Assembly: GCF_054482525.1 (NCBI RefSeq)
Contig: NZ_CM137006.1
Length of the DNA stretch: 64,000 bases
Direction: 5' to 3' (one strand)
Both the position numbers and the translations under genes were made by a program. The notes beneath the pieces are model-generated. The model did not search any database and was not told the DNA's origin. It was given only the letters and a program-made list of their open reading frames with translations. Below, piece after piece: positions 60,354-62,702 of the stretch. The number at the start of each line of letters is the position of its first letter. Position 1 is the first letter of the stretch.

Positions 60354-62702
60354 CTACTCTTTTACTAATTTTCCACTTTTATCCCAGGCGGAGAATGGCA
60401 TGGGTTTCTGGTACAGATACCCCTGAGCCTGAACACATCCTAATTTGATTAATTCGCGCGCAACGTCTTCGCTCTCTACGCCTTCCGCAATCACCGGGAT
60501 CCGGTTATAGCGTGCCAGATCGAAAATAATGCGCACAATTTTTCCCGCAGTACCGAAAATATCACCGGTAAATTGTGAGTCCACTTTTATGCTATCTGGA
60601 TTAATTTCATAAAAACGTTTCAGGTTTGACAAACCGGTGCCAAAGTCATCAATCGATATCCGTACCCCTTGTTTACGCAGTTGTTCAATATTGAGATAAA
60701 AATGTTCATTAATTCACTCGATCACGGTTTCAGTGATCTCAACACAGAGGCTGTTCTCCTTCAGGCCATTTTCTTTCATGATGGTGGTAAAACGCTCATG
60801 AAAGTGTGGTTCGTTTAACTGCCAGGGCGAAACATTAATATGCAGTAAGAAATCATCCTTCAGCGACGCACGCTGACTAAAATGTCTGAATTCACCCATT
60901 GCCGTTTTAATAATCTGATAACCCAGCTCATTGATAAACCCGATATCTTCAGCAATGGTAATGAACTTTAGCGGTGAAATGATCCCCCGCTCCGCAGACA
61001 CCCAACGGCACAACGCCTCCGCGCCCAGAATGGCGCGGGTGTTAATATCAACGATCGGTTGATAGACGAGGAATAGTTCGCCAATTTCCATTGCATGGCG
61101 AATATTACGCGCAATCCAGATATTCTCTTCTATTTCGTTGAGTTTCGCGTCATCACAGAAAATAAACTCTGAGAACATATGGTCACGGATACTGGAAATC
61201 GCCAGTTTCAGTTTTTCTGCGTAACTCCAGGCGTTTTCTCCCTGCAAAGGTTCACAAATGGCAGACTTATGGATGCGCAGATTGCGGTAGCCAAAGCTGC
61301 TGTCAAAATCGTTTATCATCGCTATTTTACGGGTAAATGTCTGTACATTTTCCCGGCACAGAAGTAAATAGAGATCGGCATTGAATGTCACGATATCGCA
61401 GCATTGCGCATATTTCTCGGCAATTCGCTGACACAATTTCCTGACGATTTTATTGCGTTCATCAACACCAAACACCGCTTCCACGGCTTCCAGACCACAC
61501 AGTTTGATGATCCCCACAGCCAGATACTGATTATTGTTGGACTCAATAATCGCCATATTTTTAATAAAACCGCTTTCCTGATCGTAAGAGATCAGTGAGA
61601 GCAATTTATTTGACCGTTCAATTTCGGCATCTTTCATTTCCGCGATCGAATTTTTGATGCTGATAATCTCTTTCGCATCGCCTTCGCGAATTTTCAGAGC
61701 CTCGATTTGATCCGTTGAGTCAGGCAAAAACGCCAGCGTATTAACCAGTTCTGTCATTTCAGAAAATTGCCGACGGAACACACGAGTGGTCATTAAATAA
61801 ACCACCAACAATACGATAATAATGAACGCAAACGGCAGATAAAAAAGTTTATCTGATGCGTTCAATAAATTACCGCCAGGATAATAAAAATAGATTTCGA
61901 ATAATGCGTTGTTTGGCACCACTGATGTTTTTTCGATATATTCAGTATCGACAGAATCAATAATATTATAATTACCTTCGCTATTATAAATAATCAGTTT
62001 TTCACGCGCGAGTTGATTCTTGGCAATGATCTCATGGCCTTGTTTCAAAAATAGAACTTCATCATTAGCGCTGATTTGATCAAGATACTCGTTCAGATAT
62101 CGCCAGTTTAAATCGACATGTATTTTATCCACCGCTAACAAATCGTGATCTTTGCCGTTGATGCGTAGCGTAAAAGAGATACATTTTTTACCCGGACGAT
62201 CAAAGCAATTGTAGGCCGGATTCCAGCTGTTGTTAGAGTCATCTGAAGCCACCGACCATGGTCGTTTCGATGGATTAAAATCGGCAAAAATAACCCGCCC
62301 TGACTCGTCGACAAGCGGTCCATTTACTTCTTCCTGATGATAAACAACGATTTTATCATTCGCCCTCCGCGAAAAGAGATAATATTTATTATCATCAAGT
62401 ACCAGTCCCACCGAGTCTAAAAATGGCATCATTTCCATTTTAAGGATCACAGCGCGTTGAATCTCCTCTGTATTTTTTAATAAATACAGTGAGTCCTTTA
62501 ATGTCAGGGCCGAACGTTCAATATCTTTAAAGAAATAGCCAACGTTTTTCTGAATAAGTTCAAAGCGGCTATCGGCACGTTTTACCGCGCGTTCCGATAC
62601 CAGTTGATAGTTAATGATGAAAAAAAGGCCAATAAATGACAGTGCTGCCAATAAAAATAAAATTATCAGCCTTATCTTTATCTTTTCGTATAAACTCAGC
62701 AT
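60354..62702 (-). pseudogene. pdeI: c-di-GMP phosphodiesterase PdeI (YliE) interrupted by an in-frame TGA
   Basis: A 782-codon frame from MLSLYEKIKIRLIIL (62702) runs through the EAL domain to 60354, except for one in-frame TGA at 60714-60716 (minus strand), after which the frame continues as INEHFYLNIEQLRKQGVRISIDDFGTGLSNLKRF. Confidence 0.6.

Follow-up and report, generated by a model that had tools for sequence, protein, structure and literature searches.

The window analysed here, that is, the whole 64,000-nucleotide stretch of contig NZ_CM137006.1, contains the genes gsiABCD-pdeI-dgcI-rimO-bssR in the arrangement known from K-12. The gene of interest, pdeI (yliE), occupies positions 60354 to 62702 of the minus strand as a frame of 782 codons followed by a TAG. 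Its ATG start at 62702 and its extent of 2,349 nt match the RefSeq pdeI genes of SCU-102, 19KM1776 and K-12 (b0833), and it differs from the last of these at 31 of the 2,349 nucleotides (1.32%). The position between gsiD and dgcI and the near-identity to K-12 b0833 mark the gene as a PdeI/YliE orthologue, as does an N-terminal CHASE9 sensor lying between two hydrophobic segments. A sigma-70-like hexamer pair upstream of the start (62789 to 62816, minus strand) is a possible promoter, proposed from a consensus match at 9 of 12 positions; the region upstream of pdeI holds no more sigma-70-like sites than does shuffled sequence.

Translation of the minus strand from 62702 to 60354 meets exactly one internal stop, a TGA at codon 663 (60714 to 60716), in the context ACC GTG ATC GAG TGA ATT AAT GAA. 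The mutated base is 60716, a T in the sense strand and an A in the plus strand. The list of open reading frames is split at the same TGA, giving frames at 60714..62780 and 60354..60632, and the gene is in effect a pseudogene. The original prediction had placed a sole TGA after codon 662 of a 782-codon pdeI, with EAL sequence carrying on in frame beyond it, and both statements agree with what was found: when the stop was masked, Pfam CHASE9 was matched at residues 35-150 and the EAL model was matched in full at residues 532-767 (model positions 2-236 of 236). A test of "more than chance" has no application to a single substitution in a gene that is already known; what matters is whether the TGA is real and whether it is derived, and the comparisons below support both.

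The part of the protein upstream of the stop is extensive. The CHASE9 periplasmic sensor (62253 to 62600, minus strand; Pfam PF17153, E = 1.9e-62) is kept, and a Kyte-Doolittle scan, in which 19-residue windows had to exceed 1.8, found hydrophobic segments at approximately residues 7-36 (62595 to 62684, minus strand) and 282-310 (61773 to 61859, minus strand), the putative first and second transmembrane helices. A degenerate GGDEF-like region that includes G412 follows at approximately residues 377-525 (61128 to 61574, minus strand). It was delimited by long NCBIfam models of tandem GGDEF-EAL proteins (GepA and DosP), which align with PdeI from residues 377 and 388 through their GGDEF portions; a GGDEF domain in PdeI was not found by Pfam (E values up to 10), by BLASTP against DgcI or by phmmer against PDB sequences. 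The last part to be translated, residues 532-662 (60717 to 61109, minus strand), makes up the N-terminal half of EAL and still contains the signatures of that half: the Gln of YQP (547-549), EALxR (EALCR, 562-566), the Asn of INVS (622-625) and ExTE (EITE, 655-658).

Codons 664-782 (60357 to 60713, minus strand) are EAL sequence that is now untranslated, and it is here that the C-terminal signatures are encoded: the DDFGTG loop (685-690), the catalytic Lys of IKVD (705-708), the EGVE general base (740-743) and the Gln of QGY (760-762). All are absent from the product, which ends at residue 662 and so has no complete EAL domain (Pfam PF00563); the NCBIfam alignments to the real product end at residue 660. 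Alignment with the solved EAL domains 5yrp and 2r6o recovered the same motifs, with conservation running through and past the stop. The earlier statements that the product would retain the periplasmic sensor and part of the EAL domain, and would lose catalytic residues, were thus borne out: CHASE9 lies upstream, the EAL domain is cut at residue 662, and DDFGTG, the Lys of IKVD, EGVE and QG all lie past the stop. EAL domains are (beta/alpha)-barrel enzymes, and because the last three signature-bearing barrel units are lost, ligands for metal and substrate disappear along with the general base. The truncated product should therefore lack phosphodiesterase activity, as far as motif content can tell, and is probably unstable, since its barrel is incomplete.

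Codon 663 is CGA (Arg) in the complete genomes of K-12 MG1655, SCU-102, 19KM1776 and AST215, and base 60716 is the sole difference between the pdeI of the window and those of SCU-102 and 19KM1776. The closest comparison is with a sister draft assembly, GCA_053421995.1 (locus L009), which over 8,329 nt (window positions 55518-63846) departs from the window solely in having a sense-strand C at 60716, and in which pdeI is intact. K-12, the nearest complete genomes and the sister draft thus all have CGA and an intact 782-amino-acid protein. The event is R663*, a C-to-T transition in the sense strand at the first base of the codon (G to A in the plus strand at 60716). The original prediction had proposed TGG (Trp) as the ancestral codon; this was wrong, and TGG is ruled out since every comparator, namely K-12, three close complete genomes and the sister assembly differing by one base, has CGA. 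It had also allowed that K-12 and other strains might carry the same TGA with a shorter functional protein. K-12 does not carry it, and others rarely do, the count being one among 5,426 complete genomes.

That count derives from searches of complete E. coli genomes with queries in which every 28-base seed word was forced to include the mutant T. The single genome with TGA at codon 663 is AHS8C65RI (NZ_CP125885.1, QMY05_RS15845), where PGAP labels pdeI a pseudogene ("internal stop"). Its CGA-to-TGA change is identical to that of the window, but its allele differs from the window allele at 49 positions, the closest of them 41 nt and 122 nt away from the TGA, and DgcI K430E (see below) is missing. 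Judged from this different allele background and the lack of K430E, the AHS8C65RI stop is an independent mutation and does not reflect shared ancestry. Recombination with an AHS8C65RI-like allele was considered as a source of the TGA and rejected, as the tract shared by the two alleles is at most 162 nt and the sister draft differs from the window by one base. Nor do the counts support a mutational or selective hotspot at codon 663: at the other three CGA codons of pdeI, TGA was found in no genome at codon 147, in none at codon 201 and in two at codon 426, so that the counts over the four codons are 0, 0, 2 and 1. The two R426* carriers are A25 and NZ_CP090611.1. An IS1 splits pdeI in three near relatives (YZLc1-3, EC17CM6 and Ec-U3), and 51 of 5,422 matching genomes have no single place that covers at least 80% of pdeI. 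Intact orthologues are nevertheless present in at least 4,583 complete genomes, and with its one internal stop set against these, the window gene is a pseudogene under the NCBI PGAP convention. Overall, pdeI is inactivated sporadically and repeatedly in nature.

The nearest complete genomes also place the mutation in time. Four substitutions (9792, 39939, 59059 and 60716) and one IS insertion separate the clone from SCU-102 over window positions 9786-64000, and 19KM1776 has the SCU-102 state at all four positions. Two of the four substitutions, in approximately 54 kb, lie within the 3.7-kb pdeI-dgcI pair; a post-hoc binomial calculation for at least two of four SNPs in 6.9% of the sequence gives a value of about 0.026. 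This clustering, together with the independent hit at codon 663 elsewhere, could hint at selection over pure decay.

The second of the clustered substitutions (59059) is in dgcI (yliF), which lies on the minus strand at 59018 to 60346, is intact and encodes a 442-amino-acid protein with GAPES2 and GGDEF domains (GGDEF motif at residues 369-373). That pdeI is co-located with a diguanylate cyclase gene was part of the original prediction, and pdeI is indeed directly upstream. The substitution, AAG to GAG, changes DgcI residue 430 from Lys to Glu; we take residue 430 to be a variable position of the C-terminal ADxxLY-x-SKxxGR motif and not its conserved Lys432 or Arg436. K430E is absent from all 5,248 matching complete genomes and is present on at least 24 draft contigs, some of which also have an intact PdeI; because it co-occurs with intact PdeI, K430E arose before the stop. 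The idea of linked compensatory evolution of pdeI and dgcI is weakened by the same data, since K430E is the older and more widespread change (at least 24 contigs) and is found with intact PdeI.

The dgcI ATG lies 7 nt past the normal pdeI TAG, and the sole Shine-Dalgarno-like sequence ahead of it is a weak AAAGAG. This weak site and the 7-nt spacing suggest that pdeI and dgcI are translationally coupled. The premature stop leaves 367 nt upstream of dgcI untranslated. Strong Rho-dependent polarity on dgcI is unsupported by a heuristic based on composition: in this stretch, the C/G ratio is at most 1.0 in every 78-nt window and G exceeds C in nearly all of them, which makes for a poor rut site. 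When the minus strand from the TGA to the start of dgcI was scanned for consensus matches, no sigma-70-like site that might serve dgcI as an internal promoter was detected. It is possible that dgcI expression is modestly lowered through lost coupling. In K-12, DgcI protein is undetectable under standard conditions (PMC5635695).

Published work bears on what the loss of PdeI might mean. YliE/PdeI carries all the EAL signature residues (PMC3484386, Table 1), and its overexpression blocks phage N4, as does that of five other phosphodiesterases, which fits phosphodiesterase activity in vivo (PMC7553319). PMC11651652, in turn, describes PdeI as a membrane protein with a divergent GGDEF domain that raises c-di-GMP; overexpression increased c-di-GMP 11-fold, and this was abolished by G412S. 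The direction of the in-vivo effect of PdeI on c-di-GMP is thus disputed between these two papers. Reinders et al. (2016), as cited in PMC11651652, are credited with the finding that G412S lowers c-di-GMP in a pdeH mutant. Were PMC11651652 right that the GGDEF region raises c-di-GMP, the retained part of the protein could still be somehow active. An EAEC strain colonised the biofilm of a K-12 yliE mutant more readily in vitro, an effect that was not seen in mice (PMC3646849). That loss of PdeI shifts the local c-di-GMP balance, as the original prediction suggested, is speculative.

Several readings of the stop compete with simple loss of function, two of which would leave PdeI intact. One holds that the TGA arose through faulty sequencing or assembly and that the true genome has CGA, which is what a single-base difference from otherwise identical relatives might suggest; moreover, assemblies made from the same reads could share a systematic base-calling error. 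However, five contigs of differing lengths in NCBI and Logan, from four samples, encode the exact 662-amino-acid product, and these include an NCBI assembly as well as Logan's independent assemblies of raw runs. Over the 6,287 nt that the NCBI contig (JBNXUX010000008.1 of GCA_050498145.1) shares with the window, the identity is 100%, and the stop site is outside any homopolymer or repeat. An assembly artefact is thus unlikely to be the source of the TGA, and we consider the chance that the true codon is CGA to be very small. Smaller still is the chance that the UGA is decoded, by selenocysteine insertion or efficient read-through, such that full-length active PdeI continues to be made. Among the stop codons of E. 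coli, UGA leaks most, and the frame downstream is undamaged, but basal read-through of UGA is only of the order of 1% or less. No SECIS-like hairpin was found at or after the TGA: the 73-nt region has a minimum free energy of -5.7 kcal/mol, weaker than the mean of its shuffles (z = +1.41) and equalled or bettered by 191 of the 200. Recoding as selenocysteine was rejected for want of such a structure, which a selenoprotein gene would be expected to show. Nor is there reason for a recoding signal to have evolved, because the codon was CGA in the immediate ancestor, and PGAP calls the identical allele a pseudogene. Two further routes to a useful product were considered and rejected. Re-initiation yielding a useful C-terminal fragment is contradicted by the downstream in-frame TTG, GTG and ATG codons, none of which has a Shine-Dalgarno sequence and the first of which lies past DDFGTG, and a phase-variable (contingency) locus is contradicted by the site itself, as the substitution lies in ATCGAG-TGA-ATTAAT and not in a repeat tract.

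The remaining alternatives accept the truncation and differ over what the stub does. The truncated protein might be a functional and possibly selected form that alters c-di-GMP signalling or DgcI in a manner unlike that of a null allele. Everything from the sensor and membrane segments to the GGDEF-like region with G412 is retained, the G412S-sensitive, 11-fold rise in c-di-GMP on overexpression (PMC11651652) would map to that retained part, and in a natural nonsense allele of PdeR/YciR that lacks EAL the regulatory effect is reversed (PMC5635171); the lineage had fixed K430E before the stop, and the same codon was hit independently in AHS8C65RI. Against this, catalysis by the stub is implausible given a GGDEF-like region too degenerate for Pfam, BLASTP or phmmer against the PDB to detect, and half a barrel would usually be expected to destabilise a protein. 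Stops at codon 663 are no commoner than at CGA codon 426 (one versus two complete genomes), K430E is, on our own reading of the motif, at a variable position rather than at the conserved Lys or Arg, and there is no sign that the allele has expanded, as it is on five contigs compared with at least 24 for the K430E parent background. We thus regard a functional stub as improbable. The same low probability is given to an extended version in which the stop would be a step in adaptive remodelling of PdeI-DgcI, with K430E fixed first, the catalytic half of EAL then removed, and the stub signalling on. Were that so, the c-di-GMP-raising effect claimed in PMC11651652 would have been uncoupled from phosphodiesterase activity, and the hit at codon 663 in AHS8C65RI, an unrelated chicken isolate, would represent parallel evolution.

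The reading that we prefer, with a probability of roughly 0.88, is a recent, subclone-restricted nonsense mutation, R663*, that makes pdeI a loss-of-function allele or pseudogene subject to neutral or mildly deleterious decay. A spontaneous C-to-T change at Arg663 (CGA to TGA) occurred recently in a subclone of an E. coli lineage near SCU-102 and 19KM1776, and translation of pdeI has since ended after residue 662. The comparisons show the mutation itself, its direction and recency, its occurrence in several assemblies and the motifs that lie past the stop; loss of activity, instability of the stub and an effect on dgcI are predictions. The stub comprises CHASE9 with the two hydrophobic segments predicted to span the membrane, then the degenerate GGDEF-like region and finally the N-terminal half of EAL; having neither the DDFGTG loop nor the catalytic Lys, the EGVE general-base motif or the conserved Gln, it would not be an active phosphodiesterase. 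Expression of dgcI may drop as the coupling through TAG, 7 nt and ATG is lost. Decay of a dispensable signalling gene, whether neutral or mildly deleterious, is the interpretation that suits the allele best.

The importance of the lesion is mostly at the level of strain annotation, where the pdeI of this clone calls for a pseudogene entry (R663*, internal stop). In addition, the window clone with TGA and GCA_053421995.1 with CGA, which are otherwise identical over the 8.3 kb compared, constitute a natural isogenic pair. Such a pair could help settle whether PdeI lowers or raises c-di-GMP in vivo, and could show whether dgcI expression depends on translation of pdeI.

The lesion itself is ordinary and not a new kind of feature: natural inactivation of E. 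coli GGDEF/EAL genes is already documented, and standard annotation pipelines already flag such cases. PMC5635171 describes stop codons and frameshifts in these genes as frequent among natural isolates, and YliF, unlike YliE, is one of the proteins that it lists as conserved throughout its 61 genomes. The reference for the intact state is K-12 PdeI (YliE, b0833), a putative c-di-GMP phosphodiesterase with the same synteny, the same 782-codon frame, CHASE9 and EAL domains and 98.7% nucleotide identity; it differs from the window allele in having CGA at codon 663 and a complete EAL domain, and by five further amino-acid differences. The R426* alleles resemble R663* in being sporadic, lineage-restricted inactivations of pdeI, but their stop lies earlier, within the GGDEF-like region, so that the EAL domain is lost entirely, and the IS1 alleles are likewise sporadic inactivations, but by an insertion that splits the gene. 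The closest parallel outside pdeI is pdeR/yciR, for which natural nonsense alleles are known from two unrelated strains at the same codon, a TAG in B-11870 and a TGA in EHEC O111:H- 11128 (PMC5635171). There, as here, natural stops remove EAL from a composite GGDEF-EAL protein and recur at one codon. The two differ in that PdeR keeps an active GGDEF domain, and truncated PdeR experimentally up-regulates the rdar morphotype (PMC5635171), whereas the GGDEF-like region of PdeI is degenerate; moreover, the PdeR stop precedes EAL, whereas that of PdeI lies inside it.

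Over the ~54 kb compared, the clone differs from SCU-102 at only four substitutions (window positions 9792, 39939, 59059, and 60716), and 19KM1776, the other of the two nearest complete genomes, has the SCU-102 state at each of them. The 3.7-kb pdeI-dgcI pair contains two of these substitutions, a concentration with a binomial probability of ~0.026, calculated post hoc. One of these, at 60716, is the pdeI stop itself, and the other gives DgcI K430E (AAG to GAG at dgcI codon 430, window 59057-59059). Residue 430 is a variable position in a C-terminal motif of the DgcI GGDEF domain. 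The K430E substitution was not found in any of the 5,248 complete genomes matched. At least 24 draft contigs carry it, some of them together with an intact pdeI, so K430E is older than the pdeI stop. The substitution at 39939 is intergenic, lying between potG and potF.

Other lesions of pdeI occur in complete genomes. A nonsense allele distinct from R663*, R426* (CGA to TGA at codon 426), was detected in two of them: NZ_CP028750.1, strain A25 from a monkey (match H76), and NZ_CP090611.1 from a pig (match H77). The R426* stop is positioned within the GGDEF-like region, and its product would lose the whole EAL domain. In strains YZLc1-3, EC17CM6, and Ec-U3 (matches H35-H37), pdeI alleles 99.4% identical to that of the window are broken by an IS1B insertion, and PGAP annotates each as a CHASE9 protein plus a phosphodiesterase fragment. 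On the other side of dgcI, the dgcI-rimO interval of the relative E. coli AST215 (NZ_AP043621.1, locus L003 7755-8460) harbors two genes, one for a RelE/ParE-family toxin and the other for a helix-turn-helix (antitoxin-like) protein; this pair is missing from the window, SCU-102, and K-12.

Larger differences from SCU-102 were also detected. The deoR-dacC intergenic region contains an insertion of ~706 bp (window 53005-53710) relative to SCU-102, with a minus-strand ORF at 53109-53618 for an IS200/IS605-family transposase (NCBIfam NF033573, E = 1.9e-43). Used as a query, the 25-kb segment 39001-64000, which includes this insertion, gave matches at 13 places in SCU-102; these are presumably additional copies of the IS200/IS605-family element.

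Window positions 1-9785 belong to an integrated phage-like or satellite-like element, missing from both SCU-102 and 19KM1776, that is cut by the left end of the window and extends past it. Its junction is at 9785/9786, the insertion point being between clpS and yljB/cspD, and a minus-strand tyrosine integrase gene (8384-9619) adjoins the junction. The substitution at 9792 is 7 nt from this junction, and the position may be part of the attachment site of the element. Also encoded by the element are a ClpP-protease/capsid fusion (527-2437), an Ash-family protein, a D5/P4-alpha-type primase-helicase, an SSB, and a DUF4222 protein. In this gene set the element resembles a P4-like or capsid-forming satellite.
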